Shown piece after piece: positions 1 through 62,624 of a stretch of DNA of 64,000 nucleotides (position 1 is its first letter; every line of letters starts with the position of its first letter). The notes beneath the pieces were generated by a model. It was not told the origin of the DNA, did not search any database, and was given only the letters and a program-made list of their open reading frames with translations. This stretch comes from Chiloscyllium plagiosum (Eukaryota), in NCBI RefSeq assembly GCF_004010195.1, contig NC_057714.1:24361097-24425096 (forward strand), in the 5' to 3' direction. The translations under genes were made by a program, and so were the position numbers.

Positions 1-57
1 AAATGTGTTGCTGGAAAAGCGCAGCAGGTCAGGCAGCATCCAGGGAACAGGAGAATC

Positions 58-85
58 GACGTTTCGGGCATAAGCCCTTCTTCAG
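58..85 (-). ncRNA. Minimal hammerhead ribozyme motif (PLE type)
   Basis: Reverse complement reads CUGAAGA-A-GGGC-UUAU-GCCC-GAAAC-GUC: conserved core, 4-bp stem II, palindromic ACGU mini stem III and GUC triplet. Confidence 0.75.
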
Positions 86-161
86 GAATGAGGAACGTTT
101 GTCCAGCAGGCTACTCCTCCCTACCTATTATCTTAGCCTGCTGGACAAACTTTCCTCATTC

Positions 162-189
162 CTGAAGAAGGGCTTATGCCCGAAACGTC
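162..189 (+). ncRNA. Minimal hammerhead ribozyme motif (PLE type)
   Basis: ctgaaga a gggc ttat gccc gaaac gtc. Predicted cleavage is 3' of C189. Confidence 0.75.
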
Positions 190-289
190 GATTCTCCTGT
201 TCCCTGGATGCTGCCTGACCTGCTGCGCTTTTCCAGCAACACATTTCCAGCTCTGATCTCCAGCATCTGCAGACCTCACTTTCTCTTCT

Positions 290-2290
290 AAAATTAACAA
301 TTCCCTTGTTTAGAATATTTATTCCTGGCCCATCCTTAACCTTTTCCACAACTATACTAAATCTATCTGAATTATGGTCACTATCTCCAAAATTATGCCT
401 CTGCTCTTACACTTTCCACTCGCCTGGGCTTGGTTCCAAATATGATACCTAGAAATGTCCCCTTTCTTGTTGGGTTTTCTGCATACTGGCGAAAAAATGT
501 TCTCCTGGATGGAATTTCAGAATTTTGCTTCCTTCTACCTTGCACATGGAAACTATCCCAGTTTATGTTTGGTTAGTTAAAATCCTTATTATTCTTACCT
601 TTCTCTGAAATTTGATTCCATATTTGACTCTCCGTTTCTCCCTGATTATTTGGGGGCCTATAGTACACATCCAACATTGTGTTTGCCCTTTGATTTTTAA
701 AATTTCGATCCTTATGGCCTCATTTGATGATCTTTTCAACATATTTCCTCACTGCTATTATTGACTCCTCTCAATTAATATTCCCATCTTCTTATCCCTT
801 TTCTATCTTGTCTGATTATCCGATAACTGGAATATTGAGCTGCCCATCTTTCAGCATGTCTCAGTCCAAGCAATAATATCACACTCCTCATGCCTATCTA
901 TGTCCTCAGCTCATCTATCTTATTAGAATTATAGAATCCCTACAGTGTGGAAACATGCCATTCAGCCAACTCTCCAAAGAGTAACCCACTCAGACCCATT
1001 CCCCCTCCCTATTATTCACCTAACCTACACATTTTTGGATCATGGGAGGAAACCGTGGGAGCACCTGGAGGAAACTCACACAGACACAGGGAGAACATAC
1101 AAACACCCGAGGCTGGAATCGAACATAGGTCCTTAGCGCTTTGAGGCAGCAGTGCTAACCACCGAGCCACCATGCCGTCCAAGCTTCTTGAATTAAAATA
1201 TATTCCATTTACCCTTGTAAACACATTTCTTTCTTACCTAATCCATGTTTCCTCTGCTTTCCAGAATCACTTGTGTTTTAATTTTTCATTCCATCTCAGC
1301 TTCTCTCCCACCTGAACTACTTATCGGGATCCCATTCCCCTGCCAATCTAATTTACATCCACCTCAACAGCATCAACAAATCTCCCTCCAAGGACTTGCT
1401 GTAAATCCCACACCTGTTCAGATGTCACCTGCCCAACATGTTCAGGTCGCACCTCTCCCAGAAACAGTTTTAATTCTTCAGCAACCTAAAGTTCTCCTCC
1501 TTGCATCTCTCCAGCGATGCTCTGTTGTTCTATTCTTATACTCACAACTGTGTGGTAATCTGGAGATTGTGATTTTTGAAGTCCTAACTGTACAATTTCC
1601 TACCTAAGTCTGCTTGTAGACCTTATTTCTCTTTCTTCAAAGTCATTGGTCCCAACATGGACCTGACCTTCACCTTCCTCCTCCTGAATGCCCTGTGGTT
1701 CTGTGACATGCAAGGCCTTAATACCCAGGAGACAATGTACCACCTTGGAGTTATGTCCACAGCGACAGAAGTGCCTGTCTACTCCCCTCACTGATGAATC
1801 CCCCACCACTACTGCTCTTCCACATTTCTTCCTCCATCCTGCCAGTCCCAACCCCAAACAGCTGGAACACTGCCTCGGCCCTAGCTGCCTTTCACAGAGG
1901 GACCATCGTTCTCACTAGAAAATACTGAGAAACATCTTCTTCTTGTTTATGTCAGACAAACAACCAGAACTCCTTAACTCTATCAGGTGAAGAAATTTAG
2001 TTGTAAAATTCTAAAGTATTAATTATCTGTGTAAAGTTTTTAAGTTTACTTGAAGCTCAATCTACATCAATAACTGGTCACAAGAGATAAGAGAGAAACT
2101 ACCTGCCAATTACCTTGCTGCTCTCCTGTCACATCACACTCTGATTTTGTTGAACTAGCTCTACTGCCAGTTTATCTGCTCCTGGGGACCTCCGTGCTGT
2201 TGTAGCTCCTTTTAACCTCGTTACCACCATTGCTGAATCCCGTTCGTCTGTCCACTTCCGGTTTGGGAGACTTTATTTAGCTGTGTTAAA
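290..2290 (-). mobile_element. Decayed CR1 LINE 5' part (probable 5'UTR, ORF1 esterase, ORF2 endonuclease), interrupted by a SINE
   Basis: ORF 1600-1857(-) has VVVGDSSVRG...VHVGTND (SGNH/GDSL esterase of CR1 ORF1). 360-930 resembles the endonuclease region at 41780-42400 (gaattatggtcact...). Confidence 0.75.
924..1179 (-). mobile_element. HE1-like tRNA-derived SINE
   Basis: Reverse complement of the head ggtggctcggtggttagcactgctgcctca, B-box ...gttcgattcc, body tttcctccaggtgctcc, and a CR1-like 3' end. Confidence 0.9.
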
Positions 2291-6860: not shown

Positions 6861-7056
6861 TTGTGGCTGCCAAAATGGCAGAAACCTGGGTTCGATTCCA
6901 ACCTCAGGTGACTGTCTGTCTGTGCGGAGTTTTCACATTCTCCCCGTGTCTGTATGGGTTTCCTCCGGGTGCTCTGATTTCCTCCCACAGACCAAAGATG
7001 TGCAGGTTACGTGGATTGGCAGGTTATGTGGATTGGCCATGCAAAATTACTCAGTA

Positions 7057-7261
7057 GGAGAAAGTGAGGTCTGCAGATGCTGGAGATCAGAGATGGAAAT
7101 GTGTTGCTGGAAAAGCGCAGCAGGTCAGGCAGTATCTAGGGAACAGGAGAATCGACGTTTCGGGCATTAGCCTGAAGAAGGGCTAATGCCCGAAACGTCG
7201 ATTCTCCTGTTCCCTAGATGCTGCCTGACCTGCTGCGCTTTTCCAGCAACACATTTCCATC
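7057..7261. mobile_element. PLE pseudo-LTR fold-back with hammerhead and 15-bp TSD
   Basis: Exact TSD caaaattactcagta at 7042-7056 and 7262-7276. Inverted arms are centred near 7175, and the tail is on the left arm only. Confidence 0.92.
7172..7199 (+). ncRNA. Minimal hammerhead ribozyme motif
   Basis: ctgaaga a gggc taat gccc gaaac gtc. Confidence 0.75.
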
Positions 7262-7709
7262 CAAAATTACTCAGTATCCAGGCATGGGTGGGCAGGTATG
7301 TTGGATGTTCTGTGGGAGATGGGGGGAATCGGTGTGGACTCGATGGGCTGAATGGCCTGCTTCCACACTGTAGGGATTCTATAAAGATGTAATGGTAGGA
7401 AAAGAAAGATTGAAGTCACTTTTTGTTGCACCTTCTGTACAACCTGGCACCTACTGAGCAATTTCTACAACAGTCTCTTTCAATCTGTTTAAGTTTTGGA
7501 TTGTTTATGTTATTTAGACTACCTTGAGGGGCACTGATTACTGTACTGTGGAGGTGTGCCCAGAATGCCAAGGATGTCATTCACTGCTGCCAACTAGAAG
7601 GAGCATAACTCTCAAGTGGGATTTCAGATGTCAATAACCAAGGCTTAGCACCTCTATATCTCTGAGATCGCTGGATGCCCCAAGCAAAATGGGGTTTAAG
7701 GAGAAGATA

Positions 7710-19416: not shown

Positions 19417-19544
19417 CTGATGGAGGTTCCTGCCCGAAATGTTGACTCTCCTGCTGCTCTGATGCTGCTTGACTTGCTGTGCTTTTTCCAGCTCCACATT
19501 TTATTGACTCTGACTTTCCAGCATCTGCAGTCTTCACTATCTCC
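19417..19544 (+). mobile_element. PLE pseudo-LTR monomer with degenerate hammerhead and tail
   Basis: Starts ctgatggaggttcctgcccgaaatgtt and ends ccagcatctgcagtcttcactatctcc. Confidence 0.8.
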
Positions 19545-19619
19545 AACAGTTTCGTTAAGAATAACTGACAGTGAGCATAAGCAATGAGGAGTTTTCATTA
19601 GTACGAAGTGTGCAAGGTT

Positions 19620-19923: not shown

Positions 19924-20106
19924 ATTATAAACTTAGAGTTTAAGTCTTGGTTGTTAGAGATTGTTGGTAGTTGATTAAAGGGGTCTCTGGTGAATTGAGG
20001 AGAATGTGGTGCAATTGGTGGGATATGAACTTTGAAGATGCCTTTACTGACATTGACCATTTATGTTCAGTCCTTGGTCTTTCCGCACCATTCAGGTCAT
20101 CAAGGC

Positions 20107-20374
20107 TGGTAGGTGAGGACCAATGGGGTTCTGTCCTGGTTGCGATTGGAGGGGCGGGGCTCAAGGGCGGAGGAGTGGAAGTGAAGGAGATGCGGTGGAG
20201 AGCATCGTCGACCACGTCTGGGAGGAAATTGCAGTCTTTGAAGAAGGAGGCCATCTGGGTTGTTCAGTATTGAAACTGGTCCTCCAGGGAGCAGATGCGG
20301 CGGAGACGAAGGAATTGGGAATATGGGATGGCGTTTTTACAGGGGGGAGGGTGGGAGGAGGTGTAGTCTAGATA
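20107..20374 (-). mobile_element. Inverted PLE segment (RT thumb)
   Basis: Reverse complement translates YLDYTSSHPPPCKNAIPYSQFLRLRRICS...MASFFKDCNF, the conserved PLE RT C-terminal motif. Confidence 0.9.
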
Positions 20375-20395
20375 TGCGATGGAGATGAAGGAGTT

Positions 20396-21422
20396 ACCGC
20401 AATTTCCCCCCAGATGTGGTCGACGATGCTATCCACCGCATCTCCTCCACTTCCTGCTCCTCCGCCCTTGAGCCCCGCCCCTCCAATTGCCACCAGGACA
20501 GAACCCCACTGGTCCTCACCTACCACCCCACCAACCTCCAGATACATCGTATCATCCGTCGTAATTTCCGCCACCTCCAAACAGACCACACCACCAGGGA
20601 TATATTTTCCTCCCCTCCCCTATCAGGATTCCAAAAAGACCACTCCCTCTGTGACTCCCTCGTCAGATCCACACCTCCCACCAACCCAACCTCCACTCCC
20701 GGCACCTTTCCCTGCAACCACAAGAAATGCAAAACTTGCGCCCACACCTCCCCCCTTACTTCTCTCCAAGGCCCCAAGGGATCCTTCCATATTTGTCACA
20801 AATTCACCTGCACCTCCACACACATCATTTACTGCATCCGCTGCACTCAATGTGGCCTCTTCTATATTGGGGAGACAGACTGCCGACTTGCGGAACCTTT
20901 CAGAGAACACCTCTGGGACACCGGGACCAACCAACCCAACCACCCTGTGGCTCAACACTTCAACTCCCCCTTCCACTCCACCAAGGACATGCAGGTCCTT
21001 GGACTCCTCCATCACCAGACCATAGCAACACGACGGCTGGAGGAAGAGCGTCTCATCTTCCGCCTAGGAACCCTCCAACCACAAGGGATGAACTCAGATT
21101 TCTCCAGTTTCCTCATTTCCCCTCCTCCCACCTTGTCTCAGTCCCAACCCTCGAACTCAGCACCACCTTCCTAAGCTGCAATCTTCTTCCTGACCTCTCC
21201 GCCCCCACCCCCACTCCAGCCTATCACCCTGACCTTAACCTTCTTCCACCTATCACATTTCCAACGCCCCTCCCCCAAGTCCCTCCTCCCTACCTTTTAT
21301 CTTAGCCTGCTTGGCACACTTTCCTCATTCCTGAAGAAGGGCTCATACCTGAAATGTCAATTCTCCTGCTCCTTGGATGCTGCCTGACCTGCTGTGCTTT
21401 TCCAGCAACACATTTTCAGCTC
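20396..21422 (+). mobile_element. 5'-truncated Penelope-like (Neptune-type) retroelement
   Basis: GIY-YIG ORF, C-rich 3' region and pseudo-LTR with a CpG-decayed hammerhead at 21331-21358. Confidence 0.92.
20416..21174 (+). pseudogene. PLE ORF remnant: Cys-rich linker plus GIY-YIG endonuclease (open for 252 aa, N-terminally truncated)
   Basis: PLVLTYHP, CNHKKCKTC, FTCTSTHIIYCIRCTQCGLFYIGET, FREH, VAQHFN, RLEEERLI.RLGTLQPQGMN. Confidence 0.9.
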
Positions 21423-24744: not shown

Positions 24745-24862
24745 CCTTTCCTGAGGAACGGTCCCTCGACTCTAAAGGTTAACTCTGATTTCTCTCCACA
24801 GATGCTGCTAGATCTGTTGAGCTTTTCATGCGCTTTCTCCTTTTGTTTCTGCAGTTCTTACG
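24745..24862 (+). mobile_element. Older PLE-terminus family copy (decayed hammerhead-like head)
   Basis: ctgaggaacggtc...aaaggttaactctgatttctctccacagatgctgc. Related copies at 24982-25095(-), 33845-33955(+) and 36610-36722(+). Confidence 0.6.
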
Positions 24863-24981: not shown

Positions 24982-25095
24982 CAAATGAAACCAAACGACT
25001 GTGGGTGCTGGAGCTCTGAAATAAAAAGAGAAAGTGGTGGAGAAATTCATCAGGTCTGGCAGCGTCTGTGAAGAGAGAAACAGAATTAACATTCG
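24982..25095 (-). mobile_element. Older PLE-terminus family copy
   Basis: tgctggagctctgaaataaaaagagaaag...caggtctggcagcgtctgtg...cagaattaacatt. Confidence 0.65.
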
Positions 25096-25408
25096 CAATC
25101 AAGAGACATATTGATGTCCAGGACTTCCTGTTTTAATTTGAGGAGGCGTCAATCTATTGTTGATGGAATCGGTACAATGCCCTCAGGGACTGCCGTCACT
25201 TATAATGCATGGCACCATTGTCTCCAAAGAGCTCAGTGCCCCCCACCCCAGATATCTGCTGTTCTCCACACCTCTGACCTTTGAGAGAGAGAGAGGAAGA
25301 GAGCATGTTGCATTGTTTGGGTGATGTGTCTGCCATAGTAAGATAGCTGAAGGTATGTGGAAGTTGTGAGAGCTGGAAGCATTGGTGAATTTGTGAGGGT
25401 TGAGGCAG

Positions 25409-25463
25409 TTGAAACTTTATTGCTGGAACAGCACAGCAGGTCAGGCAGCATCCAGGGAACAGG
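25409..25463 (-). mobile_element. 55-bp PLE pseudo-LTR fragment between 41-bp direct repeats
   Basis: tgctggaacagcacagcaggtcaggcagcatccagggaacagg. The flanks 25368-25408 and 25464-25504 are identical. Confidence 0.85.
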
Positions 25464-26489
25464 GAGAGCTGGAAGCATTGGTGAATTTGTGAGGGTTGAG
25501 GCAGAGCACCTGAATGTTAGGCCTGAGTTCTGATCATTTACTGGTGATAGATAGCATTGTGGTACACTGAACAATGTGAGAAGCTGATAGGCATGAGAAG
25601 GAGCCTACAACTTGGAATGATGTGAACTGGTCCAAAATCTTGTATACCTGAAAAGAGAACTTTAGTTTGGACGAGAATAGTCAGTTTCATGGTATTTCCC
25701 TCTTGTTCTTTCAAGATGCATTCACCTATCAGCGGTGTGAAGTCATTCAGTAATTATTGACCTGGGAGAAGGCTGATAAATGTGCACACAGCAATGCCTG
25801 GGCAGCCCTGCCACAGAGCTGCTGTCTCTACCAAGGAAGACAGAGGAGCCAGTCTCAAACCTGGCACGAGCCCTCAGGCAGAACTGAGACCCCATCCTTT
25901 CCAGCATGGAAATGGTGATTAACTTTACCTCAGCACTTGCAGGTTCAAGGATTCCATTGCAACATAGGTAGAAACTGAAGTGGAAGCTCATCTGATATCA
26001 TGAGCTTGAATCTTGCTGGTGTGCAGGGTCAGATTGCTGCCATTGTTTCAGTGCTTGAAGTGAAATCTAGTGGTCTTGTTATTGCTTTCCCATTGGCCAA
26101 CCCAAACTACTTTCACCCACGTTGCAGTCCAAACCCAGACCCTTAAAACCAATAATTGCTTGAGATCTTTCTGCGAGACTGTCTGCAGTCTCCACTGAAA
26201 CCATGCAGTGGTCATTCATGTGGCACTGCAGAGGAGATGTACAGACGGGCAAAGGCATTACAAGATAATCACTAAGGGATTGCATATTGTAAGTGGTGTT
26301 GGATAAAATTATGGAGTTTTTTGGTGATTTCTTTCATTTTAGAGTTTGGTCAAGAAGACATTGTGATGGTCAGAACAGAGATTGAAGGGTGAAGAAATGT
26401 GTTGCAATGTTGATGTGGAGACAAGATTACAGCAGGATTGGAGTTTGAGTAACTGGTCATAGGCAGCCCAGTTGGAGGTCTTTTTTCTC

Positions 26490-27110
26490 TCTCATTCTCC
26501 TCATCTGCTTCAACCCTGTACTCCTATTCTTCCTCCAACCAAGGTGCCCTTTAAAGTCCTAGTGGCATGAGCTGGGCCCTCATAAGACACATATTATAGA
26601 GGATGACGTGCAGGACCACAAACCTGGAGACTGGTTTATGGTCCTGCACCTCCAACTGGGCTGCCTATGATCAGCTACTCAAACTCCAATCCTGCTGTAA
26701 TCTAGTCTCCATGTCAACATTGCTACACATTTCTCCACCCTTCAATCTCTGTTCTGTCCCTCACATGTGGCAAGTACTGTAAAGCTCCCTTCACTGAGCA
26801 GTCTAGGCAATGGAGCCACTGCTGGAGGATGACAATCACAGCATGCCTCCATTGTCGGCCTACTATCCATGTGTGGTTGGAATGGAAAGCAGCCATGAGT
26901 TAGGTGTACAGGAGGGGACCCTTGTTACCCAAACAATCAGTCTTTTGTTCATCATGTGACTCAAAGCTGGTGGGTGTTGCTGACTGGCAAGATAAATGTG
27001 GTGTGGTTATTTTCAAAATAGTGTCCATTCACTAACATGATCTTCTATGAAGGTACTTGAGAACACAACTCTTGTGATCACAATATGAGGTGTCTTTGAT
27101 CCTTTGTGGA
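26490..27110 (-). pseudogene. PIF/Harbinger transposase relic
   Basis: Collinear minus-strand motifs KIMLVNGHYFENNHTTFIL (cf. V.A.YPGS.HD.FIL), LGNKGPLLYT*LM (LGDKGYPL..WLM), CLDCSVKGALQYLP (CLDRSGGALQY.P) and SRFVVLHVILYNMCLMR (..C.LHN). Confidence 0.75.
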
Positions 27111-27545: not shown

Positions 27546-27669
27546 CAGTTAATAGCTAGATGCATGATATCGGACTTACTTGATAGCCTCTTGTGAGACC
27601 TCAGGTTAGGTCTAAGAGTAAAGGGAAGCGATGGCCCACGATAATTGTAACTGGGCTAGTATTCCATGG

Positions 27670-27820
27670 AAAAAAAGAGGACTTCAGATGCTGGAGATCA
27701 GAATCAAAAACTGTGGTGCTGGAATATTCCTGATGAAGGGTTATACCCAAAACATTAATTCTCCTGCTCCTCAGATGCTGCCAGGCCTGCTGTGCTGTTC
27801 CAGAGCCACACTTTTCGACT
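27670..27820. mobile_element. Older PLE fold-back inserted in a SINE-like repeat (27630-28080)
   Basis: The left arm is the inverted tail. The right arm starts attcctgatgaagggttataccc. Degenerate TSD ctagtattccatgg / ctagcaatccaggg. Confidence 0.8.
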
Positions 27821-28588
27821 AGCAATCCAGGGTCCCAGCTGATTTTCAACGAAAATGTGGAATTAAAAATCTGGCTGAATGGTGAAAGTTAACCACTGTT
27901 GATTGTTGTAAAAAACCCATCTGATTCACCTGTGTCCTACAAGGAAGGAAATCTGCTGCCTTACCAGATCTGGTCTACATGAGACTCCAGACCCACGGCA
28001 ATCTTAACTGCCGTCCATGTAACTGGGGATGGGCAAATATGCTGGCCTAGCCAAAAATGCCAATGTGCCATGAATCAAAAACTGTTTTGCTGCACGAAAG
28101 TTAACACTTCGAAACCTGATACACGACTGGTTAGCTTTAGGCAGGAGGTTATTTACATCTTGATGGGTAATACAGACTATCTTGTGATATCAGTTAACCC
28201 TTTCAGGTACTAACTGTCTTATGTATCGATACCTTTAGCACCAGTAGAGATAGTTCCCAGTGTTACTGAATGCATGTTCAGCTGGATTGTGTAAGACAGA
28301 GCAAGAACAAGACACATCCAAATTGGTGTTAAAACATTGTTTGATGCCTCAATTTTCCCAGTCTGCCACGTTAGTGGCCCACATTTGACACATCTGCCCA
28401 ACACCATGACAATCATGGCAGCCATACCAGAAATGGCTGGCAGCAGCCAGGCCAATATCCCAGGATTTCCCGGCTGATGGAGTTGAATGTTGTGGCCTCA
28501 GAGGTCAGGTCATGACATTTACAGAAAATGTGATGGTGCAGAGCAGACTGGGGTTTCAGTCAAGTCTGATCAGCATTGCATGGTATAG

Positions 28589-28680
28589 AATTCTGGATTA
28601 GTGGTGCTGGAAGAGCACAGCAGTTCAGGCAGCATCAGAGGAGCAGTAAAATCGACGTTTCGGGCAAAAGTCCTTCATCA
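28589..28680 (-). mobile_element. PLE pseudo-LTR monomer with 10-bp TSD
   Basis: TSD catggtatag at 28579-28588 and 28679-28688. The reverse complement begins tgatgaaggacttttgcccgaaacgtc. Confidence 0.85.
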
Positions 28681-30304
28681 TGGTATAGGCAATGTAATTA
28701 GCGCTTCCAAAGAGGGTTGTTGGAGGTCACTATTAGAAATGAAGTTTTTTTATTATCAACTTTAATCAGAAGATTGGAAGAACATGAATGAGCTGCTGTC
28801 AGCCTTTGTCAAATCGCCCACACATTCTCCTTACCCATCGCTGCCAGTGATGCTGCCAATCCAAATCAGATCCAGCCTGGAGACACTGGCAACTCATCAC
28901 TATTACTACGACGAGGTTTGAAACTAAATTTCTGAGCCTCAAGTCTACGATAGGGAAATGCCTTTGGGCGAGATATTAAGCTGAGGCCCTGTCTTCCAAC
29001 CCAGGTGACATAAATGATCCCAGGGCACTAGTTGAAGAAGAGTAGGAAAATTCTACTCCTATCCTGGCCAATATTTTTCCTCAAGCAGCATCACTAACAC
29101 ACATTATCTGGTGAAATGAGTCATCGGTGTACTCAATCACTGAACAAATTTGTCTTATCTTTCAGCCTGCAAATACTTGAGTGAAAACCAAAGTATTGTA
29201 CTTTCCAATAACTTGGCCATCCAAGTTATCTCTATGAAACAAATAAAACTTCAGTATGTGAATTTTAAATGAACCATATTGAGAATATAAGGAAAACCTT
29301 TGAAAGAATTTCCAAACTTTTCTTTTGATAACCAGAAAATAATTGCTTGCCATTTTTACTATCAGTCTGTATGAGTGACCACATTGTCATGAAATTTATG
29401 GATTATTTCTTGGTTAATAATTGAACTTTGTATTTATTATTTCCTAGACAAATGAGAGAATCAAAATAAAATAGATGAATGGCCAGTCTATTCCCCATAA
29501 TCAGCAAAATTATTTCTGACAGATAACCAATACCAAGAAATACAGATCTGAAAATCAAGGTCTGTGAAATTCCACTGATTAATTACATACTAGATTTTTT
29601 TTGTCATGGTTGAATGGAACAGGACTTGTTGATTTTGTGCTGTTACAATGATTAGTGGTCTTATGTAAGACATTCTATTTAAACATGTAAATGTGTTTAT
29701 ACTAATATCTTGAAAAGTGCTCAACCATGAAAGTAGTTTCAGAAGGTAAGTGTTCGCAATGCTGCAGTCAAATAAGCTAATTTAAGATGTATTAGGTGAA
29801 CCCTAAGTGTAAATAAATGACATCCTCTGCATTTCTTTCTACTTGTGGTTTTAATTCAACTTAGCTTCCTTAGTTTGATGTGAGACAGAATCAGCAAAGT
29901 GTGTTATTTGGTTAATGCTGCCTTGGCCCTTATTGGTGATAATTTACATTTATTATCTTTACTACAGCAGTATTTGTCAAATTTGGCCCTGATGTTTTGC
30001 AGAATGCTTGTTTTAGGGTAAACATAAATTATTGTCTACTTTGAAGCATTAAACTTTCATTCAATACAGTATAAAAAGGGAGAAGAGAATGAACAAGGAT
30101 AAAATGCTGATCATATTTTTCTTAATTTATTTTTACTGTTGTCAAAAAGAAGTATTGGCAGAGCCTTTCATCAGAACAATTTGCAAGAAGTACCAACATA
30201 GAGGGAAGAGAACACTTATACTGTATGAGACGGGAGTGCTGATTGGTTTGCAAGCAGACTGTGATTGGTAGAATATTGCCATGGAGAATGTACTAGTTAC
30301 ATTC

Positions 30305-32203: not shown

Positions 32204-33031
32204 TGTCATCCAAAACTGAAATCAGTAGAAAAACAAGTAAAGGTTTTCAGACCTGGGCACAAAAGGGAGGCATCTGGTTGTTTTTGGACAAAGGGACACA
32301 AACACAGACATACACAGAGACAGAAATAGCTGCTGTTATGAAGAGCAGAGAAAAGGATGGCTTTTTTGTGTTACTCACCAAACTGCATGCTGGTGAGGAC
32401 TAGCTCTCTCTTCAAAGATGCAGGTTTTGTGATAACTTAAGGAATAAAGAACTACCAGTGTGGTCCTTGATGCTGGAAGTTAGTTTGGGGATACTCAGAA
32501 GCGGTGTGGAACAACTATTAAAGGACAGTGGGAGATGCAACCTGGTGACCGGGAGAAAGGTGCCTTAAGAAAATCTGGGAGGAGTTTAAACCTTAATCTT
32601 TAGGGATTACTTATCTCCTGTAAGTGTGATGTAAAGAAGTTATCATAAATATACTGGATGTGCTGGCTGATGTTTTTAAGTCAGTGCCTGTTAAGTCATG
32701 TCCTGAAGAAGGGCTTATGCCCGAAACGTCGATTCTCCTGTTCCTTGGATGCTGCCTGACCTGCTGCGCTTTTCCAGCAACACATTTTCAAGTCCTGTCT
32801 GATGTCAATTTTAGATTCCTTGTTCTTGTAAAAATGTCTTAAAACATGAAATCTTGCCCTTTGGTCTTTTATGTTGGTTGCTAGGAATATCACTTTTTTA
32901 AAACAAGCTATTGGTCTCTAAGGGTATTATGAGAGCTTCAGATCTCCTTCTTTTACCATTGGCTTCAAGTTTGGTTCCTGCAGGATGTCTGTAAGTTTGG
33001 GATTGGATCTGCCCAGCAACAAGTGATGACA
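32204..33031. mobile_element. Probable solo LTR (carries a PLE insertion)
   Basis: Termini TGTCATC...GATGACA form a 7-bp inverted TG..CA pair, and the block is noncoding. No matching TSD. Confidence 0.4.
32701..32790 (+). mobile_element. PLE pseudo-LTR monomer with intact hammerhead (32703-32730)
   Basis: ctgaagaagggcttatgcccgaaacgtc. TSD aagtcatgtc / aagtcctgtc (9 of 10 match). Confidence 0.88.
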
Positions 33032-33844: not shown

Positions 33845-33955
33845 ATTTGAAACATTAACTCTGTTTCTGTCTCACACATGTTGCCAGACCTGCTGAATTT
33901 TTCCAGTGCTTTCTGTCTTTATTTCAGATCTCCAACATCAGTAGCACTTTGCTTC
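33845..33955 (+). mobile_element. Older PLE-terminus family copy
   Basis: gaaacattaactctgtttc...gccagacctgctgaatttttccag...ttcagatctccaacatc. Confidence 0.65.
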
Positions 33956-36609: not shown

Positions 36610-36722
36610 GAACAAAGACATTAGCTCTGCTTTCTCTCCACAAATGCTGTCAGAACTGCTGAGTTTCTCCACCAATTCTGATTTTGTTTCAGATTTCCAG
36701 CATCTGCAGTTCTTTGTTTCTT
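36610..36722 (+). mobile_element. Older PLE-terminus family copy
   Basis: ctctgctttctctccacaaatgctgtcagaactgctgagtttctcc...ttcagatttccagcatctgcag. Confidence 0.7.
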
Positions 36723-39966: not shown

Positions 39967-40133
39967 NNNNNNNNNNNNNNNNNNNNNNNNNNNNNNNNNN
40001 NNNNNNNNNNNNNNNNNNNNNNNNNNNNNNNNNNNNNNNNNNNNNNNNNNNNNNNNNNNNNNNNNNNNNNNNNNNNNNNNNNNNNNNNNNNNNNNNNNNN
40101 NNNNNNNNNNNNNNNNNNNNNNNNNNNNNNNNN
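39967..40133. other. Assembly gap (N run)
   Basis: Run of n characters. Confidence 1.
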
Positions 40134-41039
40134 NCTGCCTTCTTTCAGAAAGCCAGTTTCTAATCCAAGCCACTAAATCACCCTCAATTCCATGCCTCTG
40201 CATTTTCTCCAACAGGCTACCATGTGGAACGTTATCAAAGGCTTTACTGAAGTCCAAGTATACCACGTCAACTGCCCTAACCTCATCTACATGCTGAGTC
40301 ACCTTCTCAAAAAAACTCAATGTGGTTTGTGAAACATGACCTGCCCTTGATGAACCCATGTTGACTATCTGAAATCAAATTGTTGCTTGCAAGATGATTA
40401 TAAATCTTATCTCTTATAATCCTTTCCAAAACCTTTCCTACAACAGAAGTAAAGCTCACTGGTCTATAATTACCTGGGTCATCTCTACTGCCCTTCTTAA
40501 ACAAGGGCACAGCATTTGCAATCCTCCAGTCCTCTGGTACCAAGTCTGTAGACAATGACAACTCAAATATCAAAGCCAAAGGCTCTGCTATCTCCCTAGC
40601 TTCCCAGAGAATCCTCAGATAAATCCCATCTGGCCCAGGGGACTTGTCTACTTTCACTCCTTCTAGAATTGATAGCACCTGTTCGTAACTAACCTCAATC
40701 CTTTCTAGTCTAAAATCTCATACCTCATTCTTCTCCTCCACAATGTTCTCCTTTTCCTGAGTGAAAACTGATAAATGTTCATTTAGCACCTCTCTGGTCT
40801 CCACACTCAACTTCCCACTTCTGCCTTTGGCCCTATTCCTACCCTAATCATCCTTTTATTCCTTACATACCTATAGAAAGCTTTTTTTTTAGATTAGATT
40901 AGATTAGATTACTTACAGTGATGTTCATTTAGCACCTCTCTGGTCTCCACAGGGTCCACACTCAACTTCCCACTTCTGCCTTTGGCCCTATTCCTACCCT
41001 AATCATCCTTTTATTCCTCACATACCTATAGAAAGCTTT

Positions 41040-44449: not shown

Positions 44450-46418
44450 TCTATCCATTTTAAAATAGTGATTGAAAAGGATAGACCAGATCTAAAAGTT
44501 GAAGTTCTAAATTGGAGAAAGGCCAATCTTGACCGTATTAGGCAAGAACTTTTGAAAGCTGACTGGAGGCAGATGTTTGCAGGTAAAGGGGACGGCTGGA
44601 AAATGGGAAGCCTTCAGAAATGAGATAACAAGAATCCAGAGAAAGTATACTCCTGTCAGGGTGAAAGGAAAGGCTGGTAGGTATAGGGAATGCTGGATGA
44701 CTAAAGAAATTGAGGGTTTGGTTAAGAAAAAGAAGGAAGCATATGTCAGGTATAGACAGGATAGATCGAGTGAATCCTTAGAAGAGTATAAAGGAAGTAG
44801 GAGTATACTTAAGAGGGAAATCAGGAGGGCAAAACAGGGACATGAGATAGCTTTGGCAAATAGAATTAAGGAGAATCCAAAGGGTTTTTACATTATATTA
44901 AGGACAAAAGGGTAACTAGGGAGAGAATAGGCCCCTCAAAGATCAGCAGGGCTGCCTTTGTGTGTAGTCACAGAAAATGGGGGAGATACTAAATATTTTG
45001 CATCAGTATTTACTGTGGAAAAGGATATGGAAGATATAGACTGTAGGGAAATAGATGGTTACATCTTGCAAAATGTCCAGATTACGGAGGAGGAAGTGCT
45101 GGATGTCTTGAAATGGGTAAAAGTGGATAAATCCCCAAGACCTGATCAGGTGTACCCGAGAACTCTGTGAGAAGCCAGCGAATTGATTGCTGGGCCTCTT
45201 GCTGAGATATTTGTATTATCGATAGTCACAGGTGAGGTGCTGGAAGACTGGAGGTTGGCAAACGTGGTGCCACTGTTTAAAAAGGGTGGTAAAGACAAGC
45301 CAGGGAACTATAGACCAGTGAGCCTGATCTCGGTGGTGGGCAAGTTATTGGAGGGAATCCTGAGGGACAGGATGTACATGTATTTGGAAAGGCAAGGGCG
45401 GATTAGGGATTTTCAACATGGCTTTGTGCGTGGGAAATCATGTCTCTCAAATTTGATTGAGTTTTTGAAGAAGTAACAAAGAGGATTGATGAGGGCAGAG
45501 CAGTAGATGTGATCTATATGGACTTCAGTAAGGCGTTCAACAAGGTTCCCCATAGGCGACTGATTAGCAAGGTTAGACCTCATGGAATACGGGGAGAACT
45601 AGCCAATTGGATACAGAACTGGCTCAAAGGTAGAAGACAGAGGGTGGTTGTGGAGGGTTGTTTTTCGGTCTGGAGTCCTGTGACCAGTGGAGTGCCACAA
45701 GGATCCTCTACTTTTTGTCATTTACATAAATGATTTGGATGCGAGCGTAAGAGGTACAGTTAGTAAGTTTGCAGGTGACACCAAAATTGGAGGTGTAGTG
45801 GACAGTGAAGAGGGTTACCTCAGATTACAACAGGATCTGGACCAGATGGGCCAAGGGGCTGAGAAGTGGCAGATGGAGTTTAATTCAGATAAATGCGAGG
45901 TGCTGCATTTTGGGAAAGCAAATCTTGGCNNNNNNNNNNNNNNNNNNNNNNNNNNNNNNNNNNNNNNNNNNNNNNNNNNNNNNNNNNNNNNNNNNNNNNN
46001 NNNNNNNNNNNNNNNNNNNNNNNNNNNNNNNNNNNNNNNNNNNNNNNNNNNNNNNNNNNNNNNNNNNNNNNNNNNNNNNNNNNNNNNNNNNNNNNNNNNN
46101 NNNNNNNNNNNNNNNNNNNNNNNNNNNNNNNNNNNNNNNNNNNNNNNNNNNNNNNNNNNNNNNNNNNNNNNNNNNNNNNNNNNNNNNNNNNNNNNNNNNN
46201 NNNNNNNNNNNNNNNNNNNNNTGCCAGAGGAAGTGGTGGAGGCTGGTACAATTGCAACATTTAAGAGGCATTTGGAAGGGTATATGAATAGGAAGGGTTT
46301 GGAGGGATATAGGCCGGGTGCTGGCAGGTGGGACTAGATTGGGTTGGGATATCTGGTTGGCATGGACAGGTTGGACCGAAGGGTCTGTTTCCATGCTGTA
46401 CATCTCTATGACTCTGAC
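44450..46418 (+). mobile_element. Young 5'-truncated CR1 ORF2
   Basis: DWRLANVVPLFKKG, GNYRPVSL, YMDFSKAF, SGVPQG, KFAGDTKIGG, ending ctctatgactctgactcta. Confidence 0.95.
45930..46221. other. Assembly gap (N run)
   Basis: Run of n characters. Confidence 1.
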
Positions 46419-54712: not shown

Positions 54713-54843
54713 GGTGAAAGTGAGGATTGCAGATGCTGGAGATTAGAGTCGAGAGTGTAGTGCTGGAAAAGCACAGCAGATCAGGCAGCCTCCAAGGAGC
54801 AGGAGAGTTGACGTTTCGGGCAAAAGTCCTTCATCAGGAATGA
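54713..54843 (-). mobile_element. PLE pseudo-LTR monomer with hammerhead and tail
   Basis: Reverse complement begins tcattcctgatgaaggacttttgcccgaaacgtc and ends gcatctgcaatcctcactttc. Confidence 0.85.
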
Positions 54844-55949
54844 TGACGAGTGGGCATGATGATGACCTGCAAGAGCTTATTATTTCTACAGTGTTTAAAT
54901 GGACCAGGCAAAGATGAAAGTTGATTTTCCAGGTATTTGAAGAGAGGGAGAAAGAGCAATGGCTTTGCAATATTCCAAAGCAGCCTTTTGTTGTAATGCT
55001 GCCTCACTAAAACTGGAGCACTGCAGTTTGTGATGGGTGGACAAAGCCTGCCTGAGGGACCAATAAGATATGACAATGGACTGCAGAGGAAGTTAACAAT
55101 GGGAGTATACAGCCATATTCCTGCACACATGGCCAAAATAGATTTAATGACCTAATTGGTTCAGGAAACATGTCAATGTCTGTGTTCATGTTGTATATTT
55201 AAACCCCAGTATTGTTATGATTCTCATGTAAACTAAAATAGTAAAATTTACCAAAGTATTTCATTTCTTAAAACCTTTACTTCATCCCTAATCAAACCAA
55301 TAAAATTAATCATAAATTAATAAACAATAATATTCGAAATAAAGAAGTAAATTTCACTTCATGTAGTTGATATAAGAAAGATTTGTCTTATAAAATACCA
55401 TGTATTCATCACTCCTTGCAGACATGTGGCACAATTTAACCTTTGCTACACAGGGTTGCCAACTTTCCCCCTCAATTGATTCAGCCCTTGAATTGCACTT
55501 TCTAGCAGCTATATCCTTCCAAGGTCCTTGGCAACCTCAGCACTATGCATAAAAGTCTCTTTTATGACTTTTCCAGAGACTCCTTTATCTGCACTCTTTA
55601 ATAAACCCTGTTGAATGGTCCACTCGGGTCTGGTAAACTGATGCAGCTGCAGTAAAATTACCAGCTCACAATCACTACTTGAATGCTGGAGGCAGTAGGG
55701 GTAGCTGTAATGTTACGAGACTAGCAATCTAGAACCACTGATTAACATCATGGGGACATGGATTACCAAGGAAGATGGTAATCAAAATTTTGCAAATGTC
55801 TTTCAATGATCCCTCAAAGGAACCAGGGCAACAAATATTAGGATGCTAGTGATTTTTAATGTACAATATATGTCTACCAGACCCTTTGGCAGGAGACCTT
55901 CCAAGACCATATGCCGACAATTAGCTGGCATGATTCCCTGATTTCTTCT

Positions 55950-57545
55950 ATGTTCGCACGTGGGATGTTGGTGTTGCTGGCTGGCTAGCATTTATTGCTT
56001 GTCCCTAATTGCCCTTGAGAAGGTGGTGATGAGCTGCTTTCTTAAACTGCTGCAGTCAATGTGTGGTCTATAGACTCACAATTCCGAACCGTCATTGGAT
56101 AAATATTTAAGAGAGGCTACTACATTCTGGGAAGAATATTTAAGGCAGTCTGACCCAAAATCTATCTGCTGGCAAAAGGGATGATTATATAACCAGATAC
56201 TTAGGATATATTGGTACATTGCTACGTTATATTGTATTGTCAAGCAGATTAAGGATGTCATTGTACTGCTGGAAATACTGTTTGAAATGTATTACATTAT
56301 ATGTCTGTGTGAGTGTGTGTACTGATGTATTAGACCCTTCCATCATTGAGGATGGGGATAATGGTGGAGCCTCCTCCTTCGATGAGTTGTTTAATTGTCC
56401 ACCATTATCCATAACTAGATGTGGCAGGACTGCAGAGTTTATATCTGATCTGTCAGTTGTAGGATCACTTAGCTCTGTCTATCACTATTTGACACACACG
56501 GTCCTGTTTGGTAATTTCACCAGGTTGACACTCATTTTTAAGTTGTTCTATGTCCTCCTGCACTCTCCACTAAACTGGGCTTGATCCCTGGTTTTATGGT
56601 AATGTTGATTGGGAGATATGCCGGACCATGAGGTTGCAAATTCGTACTGGAGTACAGTTCTGCTGCTGTTGATAGTTCACATTGATGTTCAGTATTCAGT
56701 TGCCAGATCCATTCAAAATCTGTCCCATTTAACATGGTAATAGTAGGAGAAAGTGAGGATGCTGGAGATCAGAGTCGAGAGTGTGGTGCTGGAAAAGCAC
56801 AGTAGGTCAGGCAGCATCCAAGGAGCAGGAGCATCGACGTTTCAGGCACAAGCTCTTCATCAGGAATGACTTATGCCCCAAACTTCGATTCTCCTGTTCC
56901 TTGGATGCTGCCTGACCTGCTGTGCTTTTCCAGCGCACACTCTCAAACATGGTAATAGTGCCATACAACACGATAGAGGGTATTCTCAAAGTGAAAGCTG
57001 GACATCATCTCCACAAGGATTGCCACTCTTACCAAAACTGTCGTGGACAAATGTTTCTACAGCCAGCAGATTTGTAAGGATGAGGTCAAGTATATTTTTT
57101 CCTCTTGGTTCCCTCACCACCTGCTGCAGACCCAGTCTAACAGCTGTGTCCTCTTGAACCTGACCAGCTCAGTGAGTAATGCTGCTGCCAAGCCAGTCTT
57201 GCTAGTGGAAATTACAATACCCTATCCAGAGTACATTTGGCACCTTTGCCACCCTTAGTGCTTCCTCCAAGTGTTGTTTAACGTGGAGGAGCCGAGGAAG
57301 TCAGTGTGTGGTAATTAGCACATTTCCTTGCCCGTGTTTAATCTGAAGACATCAGACTCCCACGACAAATCTCTCCTCATTGTATATCACTGGGTCTAAC
57401 CTGCCAGTGGGACAGGATATGTCCAGGGATGGTGATGGTGGTACCTGGGACATTGTCTGTAAGGTATGATTCCATGAGTATGTCTATGTCAGACAGTTGT
57501 TTGGCTAGTCTTTGAGACAGATCCGGTTTTGGCACTAGCCCCTAC
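55950..57545 (-). mobile_element. Old LINE relic (different clade or subfamily; 3' end shared with the second SINE family)
   Basis: The 3' end gcatttattgc...cccttgagaaggtggtg matches the reverse complement of the ends at 28030, 31800 and 51070. The interior looks like degenerate endonuclease sequence. Confidence 0.5.
56745..56945. mobile_element. PLE pseudo-LTR fold-back with 14-bp TSD
   Basis: Exact TSD aacatggtaatagt at 56731-56744 and 56946-56959. Tail on the left arm, junction at caggaatga. Confidence 0.9.
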
Positions 57546-61400: not shown

Positions 61401-61673
61401 TTCCCACTCACCAGAGGAACCTGTCCCTGCTCGGATACCCCAGAATAAATTGGCATTTCAGTGCCATCTCGGAAAATTAACTGAACACCAGGCTAAGTAG
61501 TAGCAGTTCAGATTTGTCTCTCCAAAATTGGAAGTCAATGTGTCAGAAAGCTACTCACTACAAGCAGTGTGAGCTTACCATTGGACGAACTTCAGTGTGA
61601 TTGCATTGCCATTCAATTGCACAGCTTAGAGGGAGCATTGCTGGGAGATCTAGGCTGACAGGTGTGTCCTGTC

Positions 61674-61806
61674 AAGATTAGAGTGACGCTGGAAAAGCAC
61701 AGCAAGTCAGGCAGCATCCAAGGAGCAGGAAAATTGACATTTCGGGCAAAAGCCCTTCATCAGGAATGACTCTAATCTCTGGCATCTGCAGTACCCACTT
61801 CTGCCT
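61674..61806. mobile_element. PLE pseudo-LTR with inverted tail and 14-bp TSD
   Basis: Exact TSD aggtgtgtcctgtc at 61660-61673 and 61807-61820. The minus arm has tcattcctgatgaagggcttttgcccgaaatgtc, and the plus arm is the tail only. Confidence 0.9.
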
Positions 61807-62624
61807 AGGTGTGTCCTGTCCTAGATTCTAAGATGGTCTGCTTTTCCCCGATCAATCCTTGTGACATCCATCAAATTGAGTGAAGCTTAATGCAGTCTTC
61901 AGTCTTCTATAGCCATACCTACCACATCATGGTGAAAAATGCCAAAAATTATGACTTGACATTTCGGGAAAAGTTTTTTCAGGATATGGATGGGAAGCTA
62001 AATTCTAATTTGTCAAACATAGTTGATAGTCTACAAGTGAAGTCTGAAATCACAAGCTGAGACCATTGTCTCTGCATTCCTATTTGAAAAATCACAGGGC
62101 ACTACCACACAAAATGTCACTTGCTATTGAGAAAAGGTGCAGTGTAACACTATTCACAGTTGTCTTGGAGTGACCCTTAACTGACTGTCCAAAGAATTGT
62201 CAAAACCACTAACACATGAGTGAATATATCCAAAAGCTGTCCTTTGACATAGCTCTGTTCTTCGCAGCTGAACACTATAAATCAGTGTGTCACTTCGCGT
62301 AATCATACCAAACCCCATTGGTGTACAACCTTCTTTCAGTGGTGAGGATAATCCCTGTAACCCTGAGATCAACTCCAGTTCAGTGTTTATCAGGCCATCC
62401 AATATCACCCCTCCTCCATTCCATGTCATGCAGCAACTTGTAGAGAAGTAACTCATACCAGCAGCAATTGGAATTCCTATCTAAAGGGACCTTCAAGAAC
62501 ACCGAACTCAATTACATGGATCTATGACATCTTCTCTGGTTATGAATCAAACATCTCCAACTCCATAACACCACTGAAGTTTGGAGGGAAACTTGGCCAG
62601 AAAACACCCTACCAAATAAACATA

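Follow-up and report, generated by a model that had tools for sequence, protein, structure and literature searches.

Two-armed Penelope-like stubs with one-sided tails in Chiloscyllium plagiosum and their probable origin by priming from both target strands

Introduction

A short insert at position 7057 of a 64,000-nucleotide stretch of the Chiloscyllium plagiosum genome (contig NC_057714.1; this whole stretch is called the window) consists of two arms joined head to head, one of which carries a tail. The original prediction grouped it with insertions at 27670, 56745 and 61674 and saw in them a non-autonomous, ribozyme-bearing mobile system. The locus raises the question of what the arms are derived from and how one insertion comes to have two different ends.

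Inverted pseudo-LTRs and short extensions are curation features of Penelope-like elements (PLEs; PMC8969392), and the prediction was right that pseudo-LTRs and tail extensions of this kind are known (PMC3846280, PMC8557442). An inverted truncated copy, often with the tail at one end only, and a target-site duplication (TSD) were described in PMC8557442, and a tail on one inverted pseudo-LTR only, with a TSD, in PMC3846280. New PLE inserts have a median length of 128 bp (PMC9977147). In an in vitro study of 2024, both target strands were cut and extended and two reverse transcriptase (RT) start sites bounded the tail (PMC11167929); the protein is a predicted dimer, the start site was alike on both strands, and the excerpts of that paper are silent on inverted products. 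Genomic end-pairing may already be illustrated in its Fig. S2. The excerpted literature calls the way in which PLEs form inverted repeats and one-sided tails undefined. A literature search, with subscription papers, Repbase and Dfam outside its scope, returned no statement of a strand-paired use of two start sites and no description of the shark PLE family.

Results

The insert at 7057-7261

The insert measures 205 bp and is bounded by exact 15-bp direct repeats, with which it spans 7042-7276. Positions within an arm are given in reference coordinates, which are those of window 114-290.

7042-7056, + strand: left TSD, 15 bp, exact repeat of 7262-7276
7057-7091, - strand: tail of the tailed arm, 35 nt, matching reference 251-285
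7092-7172, - strand: body of the tailed arm, 5' end at reference 171
7171-7261, + strand: untailed arm, 5' end at reference 161
7262-7276, + strand: right TSD, 15 bp, exact repeat of 7042-7056

At the head-to-head junction 2 nt (7171-7172) are common to both arms, and 7092-7172 is 99% complementary to 7181-7261 (80 of 81 positions). The tail at 7057-7091 probably marks the outer RT start point, in line with a loose-end peak at 285 in three sequencing runs. The insert sits inside a SINE, which we take to be of the HE1 type. When five SINE paralogues and a sixth, poorly matching stretch of the window were aligned, none of the six contained the insert and four carried the TSD-like stretch once. 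Flank searches in the window gave useful paralogues for the 7057 site only and none for six other sites.

Three variants (T175A, G206A and G250T) are present in both 7057 arms and absent from the other arms in the window. They had been taken as private and hence as evidence that both arms were copied from one template. In run X1, however, they account for 7.4%, 12.1% and 18.3% of the summed contig depth, a rough measure of variant share; the corresponding shares were 0.6-1.9% in X9 and 0.7-7.0% in X18. With a depth share of 7-18% in X1, the variants are not private and do not prove copying from a single RNA molecule. They are markers of a young subfamily, so a single template does not follow; the two arms share a source lineage but not provably an RNA molecule.

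The arms are the 3' end of a PLE

The same terminus was found in a long copy.

20396-21422, + strand: long 5'-truncated copy with ORF remnant, 3' UTR, hammerhead motif and untailed end
20104-20378, - strand: inverted ORF piece (RT C-terminus), head to head with the long copy

The terminus of the long copy lies behind a 261-codon ORF remnant (P0001, 20389-21174), in which the alignment identified an RT thumb, a CX4CxxC linker and a GIY-YIG domain with CCHH. Since this copy joins the terminus to an RT-thumb/Zn-linker/GIY-YIG remnant, the arms are the 3' end of a PLE, and the PLE origin given in the original prediction was correct. P0001 is 62% and 67% identical to proteins of Rhincodon and Chiloscyllium (two of nine matches); these homologues carry RVT_1 and GIY-YIG matches, and P0001 aligns to their C-terminal half. 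A Pfam search with P0001 alone gave no match.

Several further features agree with an EN+ PLE. The remnant attached to the terminus corresponds to a single ORF with RT followed by a C-terminal GIY-YIG, the CCHH has two cysteines between GIY and YIG in the alignment, an inverted 5'-truncated copy with a 30-40-nt tail at one end is present, the TSDs are of variable length, and the pseudo-LTR contains a minimal hammerhead motif by pattern. The C-x4-C-x2-C of P0001 fits the CX2-5CxxC linker between RT and EN that characterises the Neptune clade. This linker is common to Neptune, Nematis and Naiad, and linker and CCHH together are features of Neptune and Nematis, not of Penelope/Poseidon (PMC8557442). 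At the level of motifs, linker and CCHH would make the shark element Neptune-type.

The inverted piece at 20104-20378 overlaps the long copy by 133 nt at 92%. This inverted arm ends inside the ORF without a tail and is an exception to the fixed ends described below. About 20 nt at the junction of the two parts (20379-20395) are unassigned. The window contains no full-length copy.

Two-armed and single-armed copies in the window

The following copies were found in addition.

1-288: two-armed copy cut by the window edge; arm 1-113 (- strand), tailed arm 114-288 (+ strand)
27656-27829: old two-armed copy; tailed arm 27667-27724 (- strand), untailed arm 27726-27818 (+ strand)
56731-56959: two-armed copy; tailed arm 56745-56869 (- strand), untailed arm 56868-56945 (+ strand), 14-bp TSD
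56731-56744 and 56946-56959: TSD of the 56745 copy, 14 bp, exact
61660-61820: inversion-type copy; untailed arm 61674-61769 (- strand), tail-only arm 61768-61806 (+ strand), 14-bp TSD
61660-61673 and 61807-61820: TSD of the 61674 copy, 14 bp, exact
19417-19545, + strand: single-armed tailed copy
25368-25504 including the TSD, - strand: single-armed untailed copy of 55 nt (25409-25463), exact 41-bp TSD
28579-28688, - strand: single-armed untailed copy (28589), 10-bp TSD
32693-32799, + strand: single-armed untailed young copy (32700), 10-nt TSD with one mismatch
54716-54846, - strand: single-armed tailed copy

As had been claimed, a tailed arm is paired with an untailed one in all four complete two-armed copies; the sample is small, and this outcome has a chance of 1/16 if each end is tailed half the time. 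That a unit has exactly one tail rests on these four copies, as the contig survey leaves the ends of single loci unpaired. The unit at the window edge, proposed as a compatible but cut copy at 1-285, does have two arms, of which the tailed one is 114-288. The claim that two copies of the terminus are joined at each of the four loci holds for 7057 and 56745, where the tail of the tailed arm is short by 8-9 nt in the latter. At 27670 the tailed arm is short and the arms overlap by only about 20 nt, and the claim fails at 61674, whose tailed arm (61768-61806) is a tail only and whose arms do not overlap. The unit at 61674-61806 is an inversion, not a fold-back. In the 7057 copy the overlap amounts to 81 nt and in the 1-285 copy to 113 nt.

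The window contains 15 complete 3' ends, 8 untailed ones at reference 248-253 and 7 tailed ones at about 285-288. The two predicted fixed points are thus recognised as two zones, but their spacing is about 33-40 nt and not a sharp 33. The untailed arm reaches furthest 5' in three of the four complete copies (7057, 27670 and 61674); the tailed arm is the longer one in the remaining copy and in 1-285. The five two-armed units have five different head-to-head junctions with matches of 0-3 nt between the arms, and a short palindrome is present at the 27670 junction. Across the window the arms belong to subfamilies that differ at up to 20 of 76 positions. Arms were expected to resemble each other more than other copies, and this applies to 7057 but not to 56745, whose arms differ at 11 of 76 positions and are no closer to each other than to other copies (8-20).

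The original inventory had named the two-armed loci but left out five single-armed copies and the long copy. Single-armed copies are as common as two-armed ones.

The exact TSDs of 15, 14 and 14 bp at 7057, 56745 and 61674 were confirmed, and 27670 lacks an exact TSD, as had been implied; it has a degenerate one of 11 nt with 2 mismatches. Across the copies in the window the exact TSDs measure 10, 14, 14, 15 and 41 bp, and two more are degenerate. In a random control within the window, abutting exact repeats of at least 14 were found in 3 of 2,943 intervals of 130-210 bp. No TSD was found for 19417, 54716 and the long copy. The other TSDs are much shorter than the 41-bp duplication at 25368-25504. 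The seven TSD-defined sites in the window gave no target consensus, and none of them is a microsatellite, so that the insertion bias of the Neptune clade was not seen at them.

Ends and joints in contigs of three organisms

Four of 24 sequencing runs were matched to window 114-340 at 85% likeness, and those of three organisms (X1, X9 and X18) gave 82,932, 61,900 and 40,188 matching contigs, respectively. In one RNA run, of which about 6% was read, 0 reads fell on window 114-340; this is no measure of expression.

The loose-end figures are those of the best 18 of 767 rows, in which the ends of a single locus are unpaired. The 3' loose ends peaked at 285 (1093, 1180 and 945 contigs in X1, X9 and X18) and at 242-246 (911, 1148 and 948), and the two 3' end classes were near 1:1. 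Past the 242-246 peak, the sequence of older subfamilies goes on for about 10 nt, and random flank follows. A further peak at 251 with 13-15 loose letters is read by us as subfamily variation. On the 5' side a peak was observed at 157/158 (465, 314 and 235 contigs). Among these rows the 3' ends are not random and lie at two fixed points about 35 nt apart in three organisms, which bears out the expectation of non-random arm ends.

The joints were analysed in the best 15 of 55 rows, and the strand changed in 10 of them. Eight rows we read as head-to-head joints, each with one arm starting at 153-177. Tail-only arms recurred in three of the 15 (158/251, 167/251 and 167/252), with a shorter side of up to 33-35 nt, which is the tail length, as in 61674. 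The best-supported strand-changing joints in X1 were 246/285 and 253/285, found in 17+10, 5+6 and 4+3 contigs (27, 11 and 7) in the three runs. They can only be tail-to-tail, with an untailed end against a tailed end, and could stem from insertion into an existing copy at the inner start site or from tandem two-armed units.

At reference 270-289 the tail is a stretch of pyrimidines; in two of the three sequencing runs CTAG follows, as at a 3' splice site. No splice donor matching the pyrimidine-CTAG tail end was seen.

The 5' hot spot and the hammerhead motif

Two features lie at the 5' side of the arms.

Reference 156-165 (of 114-290), + strand: 5'-end hot spot of arms, just upstream of CUGANGA
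7172-7199, + strand: minimal hammerhead core found by pattern scan, with CUGAAGA, a 4-bp helix II, GAAA and the palindromic ACGU

Eight of the window's 16 terminus arms begin within 156-165, with one such arm in each of the four complete units; these starts possibly represent the 5' end of the RNA. In a pattern scan with an initiator consensus, an initiator-like sequence with its A at 158 was matched, one of 2 matches in 114-290 and against 12 per kb in the window. The inserted letters before 158 end in G in 6 of the 7 listed rows (among the best 12 of 95), and G is also the last letter of the loose-end consensus before 158 in all three runs. This G would fit a reverse-transcribed cap. The extra G is absent from all four arms of the window that begin at 156-158. 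The peak at 157/158 and the G would both be mimicked if a subfamily had another upstream UTR. A cap-derived G is mentioned for L1 and SVA (PMC2912911), and the Penelope promoter is located in the pseudo-LTR (PMC2377424). By eye, there was no TATA box around 158 and no good match to the downstream promoter element given in the excerpts of PMC2377424.

The predicted cut of the 7172-7199 core is after 7199. In the 7057 copy the core is present in the right arm only and has lost the 5' strand of helix I by truncation; the tailed arm, with its 5' end at reference 171, lacks the CUGANGA box. The minimal pattern had 6 matches on both window strands, all in copies of the PLE terminus. Rfam at the gathering score gave no match in the window, and minimum free energy folding of six terminus stretches gave z-scores of -1.08 to +1.05, none of them significant, which leaves a ribozyme unsupported by folding. 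Single minimal hammerhead motifs did not cleave in vitro (PMC4209133), and in the Anolis system uncleaved RNA is the insertion substrate (PMC11167929).

None of the 16 window arms starts at the predicted cut after reference 189, and the ribozyme cut was rejected as the boundary of the window arms. Ribozyme cleavage probably does not set the arm ends. Several joints connect 189-192 to 158/159, within 3 nt of the predicted cut; they might come from cDNA run-off from cleaved RNA or from pairing between the helix I strands.

Discussion

Comparison with known systems

The anatomy of the two-armed stubs is ordinary for PLEs and largely published. Pen2a_Av and canonical EN+ PLEs share with them the head-to-head terminus, the 30-40-nt tail at one end and the TSD round the unit (PMC3846280, PMC8557442), as well as heavy 5' truncation and a hammerhead motif in the terminus. 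In contrast to these, the shark units are mostly without an ORF, either arm can be the longer one and one arm is tail-only; their TSDs measure 10-15 bp (once 41) against 8-10 in canonical PLEs. Poseidon of Anolis carolinensis has in vitro the same two fixed start points bounding the tail, on both strands, and likewise does not need ribozyme cleavage (PMC11167929), but it belongs to a different clade than the shark element with its Neptune-type linker, and the few window sites have no AT-rich target consensus. The Neptune clade resembles the shark element in the C-terminal GIY-YIG with CCHH, the upstream CX2-5CxxC linker and the vertebrate host; it differs in the microsatellite targets, a bias that is hypothesised and not universal (PMC8557442).

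In L1 twin priming (PMC2912911) two target ends prime as well, the products are joined by short complementarity and the inversion lies inside the TSD, and 61674 has exactly this layout. Unlike L1, the shark units have no poly(A) primer site, their second site is fixed and not a chance microhomology, and their arms often overlap by 20-110 nt. The PLE stubs work like L1 twin priming but are not L1-type products. Non-LTR retrozymes (PMC4209133, bioRxiv 10.64898/2026.07.22.740005) share a PLE-derived minimal type I hammerhead and many dispersed copies, and are described as tandem PLE derivatives in the preprint. The shark units are not tandem, have at most one motif per strand per unit and, among the window arms, none that starts at the predicted cut. 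A non-LTR retrozyme was rejected, as a tandem with at least two consecutive hammerheads is absent among the motif matches in the window. A MITE-like hairpin family was also rejected, given five different junctions in five units, asymmetric ends and TSDs of 11-15 bp; a hairpin family that moves as such is improbable also because the subfamilies behind the arms can be as much as 20 of 76 positions apart.

Origin of the two-armed units

We consider it probable that the stubs are 5'-truncated PLE 3' ends made by nicking of both target strands, with each nick priming at a different fixed point. The nicks set by the element protein in the two strands would be offset by about 10-15 bp, and from either nick RT would be primed at an RNA position of its own, with a spacing of about 35 nt between the two positions. 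The two cDNAs would stop early, one often at reference 156-165, and would be joined head to head via 0-3 nt of microhomology, while the staggered nicks would become the TSD. Capture of only one cDNA would give a single-armed copy. Every hairpin would thus be made anew at insertion, as a dead by-product of an autonomous element that is not itself copied. Twin priming from both nicked strands is the best-fitting mechanism. It predicts ends of both classes in one unit, a greater length of either arm, arms made of tail alone, short matches at the junction and a single TSD, all of which are seen. Priming by both nicked strands at two fixed points had been proposed for this locus; it remains the best fit but is largely anticipated in print, as two start sites bounding the tail and the cutting and extension of both target strands were already demonstrated in vitro (PMC11167929). 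Against twin priming stand the in vitro start site, which in the excerpts is alike on both strands and not tied to inverted copies (PMC11167929), and the inverted arm of the long copy, which ends in the ORF without a tail and with no TSD found. The overlapping arms (7057 and 1-285) need one RNA stretch copied twice, or two RNAs. Several ends match between target and RNA over 1-3 nt, possibly by chance, against 'no homology' in vitro.

With the same PLE origin, an antisense RNA or the first cDNA might instead prime itself by fold-back and be resolved by the endonuclease at two fixed sites. Self-priming on an antisense template has been published as a proposal (PMC3846280), the tail has been proposed as a product of EN-mediated resolution (PMC8557442), and the near-perfect arms of 7057 and 1-285 and the short palindrome at the 27670 junction are in its favour. 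However, the tail is on the shorter arm in three of four copies and cannot be copied there from the longer untailed arm, therefore twin priming is favoured over fold-back. The arms of 61674 do not overlap, tail-only joints recur (among the best 15 of 55 rows), junction matches are just 0-3 nt, and the ends of the tail equal the RT start sites in vitro (PMC11167929). Because antisense self-priming with EN resolution, or a central deletion of the palindrome after insertion, which could change which arm looks longer, could give such units, we retain self-priming as an unlikely explanation. In our estimate it is quite improbable that the copies stem from a distinct retrozyme- or SINE-like element, non-autonomous and ribozyme-bearing, whose own short RNA is mobilised in trans. 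Such an element would account for the very high abundance (82,932 contigs in X1), the hot spot at 157/158 with a depth step upstream of it and some head-to-tail joints of short units (242/243 to 158/160, among the best 15 of 55 rows), and retrozymes are reported in one chondrichthyan genome (bioRxiv 10.64898/2026.07.22.740005). In the window, however, this terminus runs on into a PLE 3' UTR and ORF, no two of the five two-armed junctions are alike and a tandem of same-strand ribozymes is absent among the six motif matches, and single minimal ribozymes lack in vitro cleavage (PMC4209133). The non-autonomous, ribozyme-bearing system of the original prediction is not supported, in view of these junctions, the divergence of the subfamilies, the terminus joined to an ORF remnant, the lack of window arms starting at the predicted cut and the lost helix I strand of 7057. 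It is hardly credible that the two arms of a pair arose separately, through another insertion at the 5' junction of the first or later mirroring of one arm by recombination or repair, or that the pairs are assembly artefacts: the arms lie within a single TSD, the three subfamily variants, each with 7-18% of depth, are found in both arms of 7057, and strand-changing joints occur in contigs of three separate runs, even if a PLE endonuclease can target its own pseudo-LTR (PMC11167929) and tail-to-tail joints suggest copies landing on copies.

As a speculative extension of twin priming, which we regard as possible and rather doubtful, a dimeric protein would load at the start signal close to the capped 5' end of its mRNA, the two strands would use different start sites and the cDNAs would run off at the transcription start, the initiator-like A at 158 with the extra G of the cap, and only then be joined. 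If true, this rule of loading, strand pairing and run-off would account for tails on one side, for inverted pseudo-LTRs and for the great numbers of solo minimal hammerheads in animal genomes, without the need for a non-autonomous family.

The stubs are valuable as an extensive natural data set: short copies bounded by TSDs number in the tens of thousands in the genome, and counting them allows a test of twin priming against self-priming. Such hairpins should not be annotated as MITEs, new SINEs or active ribozyme elements.

Other repeats in the window

Runs of N (assembly gaps, 460 bases) are present at 39967-40134 and 45930-46221, both in LINE-like repeats, and touch none of the studied copies. 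A 118-bp inverted repeat (92%) at 26362-26479 and 26648-26765, with a 168-bp spacer, is unrelated to the PLE terminus and has neither a second copy in the window nor a flanking direct repeat. An older and more diverged family, which resembles the young one in terminus and tail and is about 73% identical to it, is represented at 24760-24860, 24989-25093, 33852-33955 and 36621-36720. Its copies at 24760-24860 and 24989-25093 are arranged tail to tail, about 130 bp apart.
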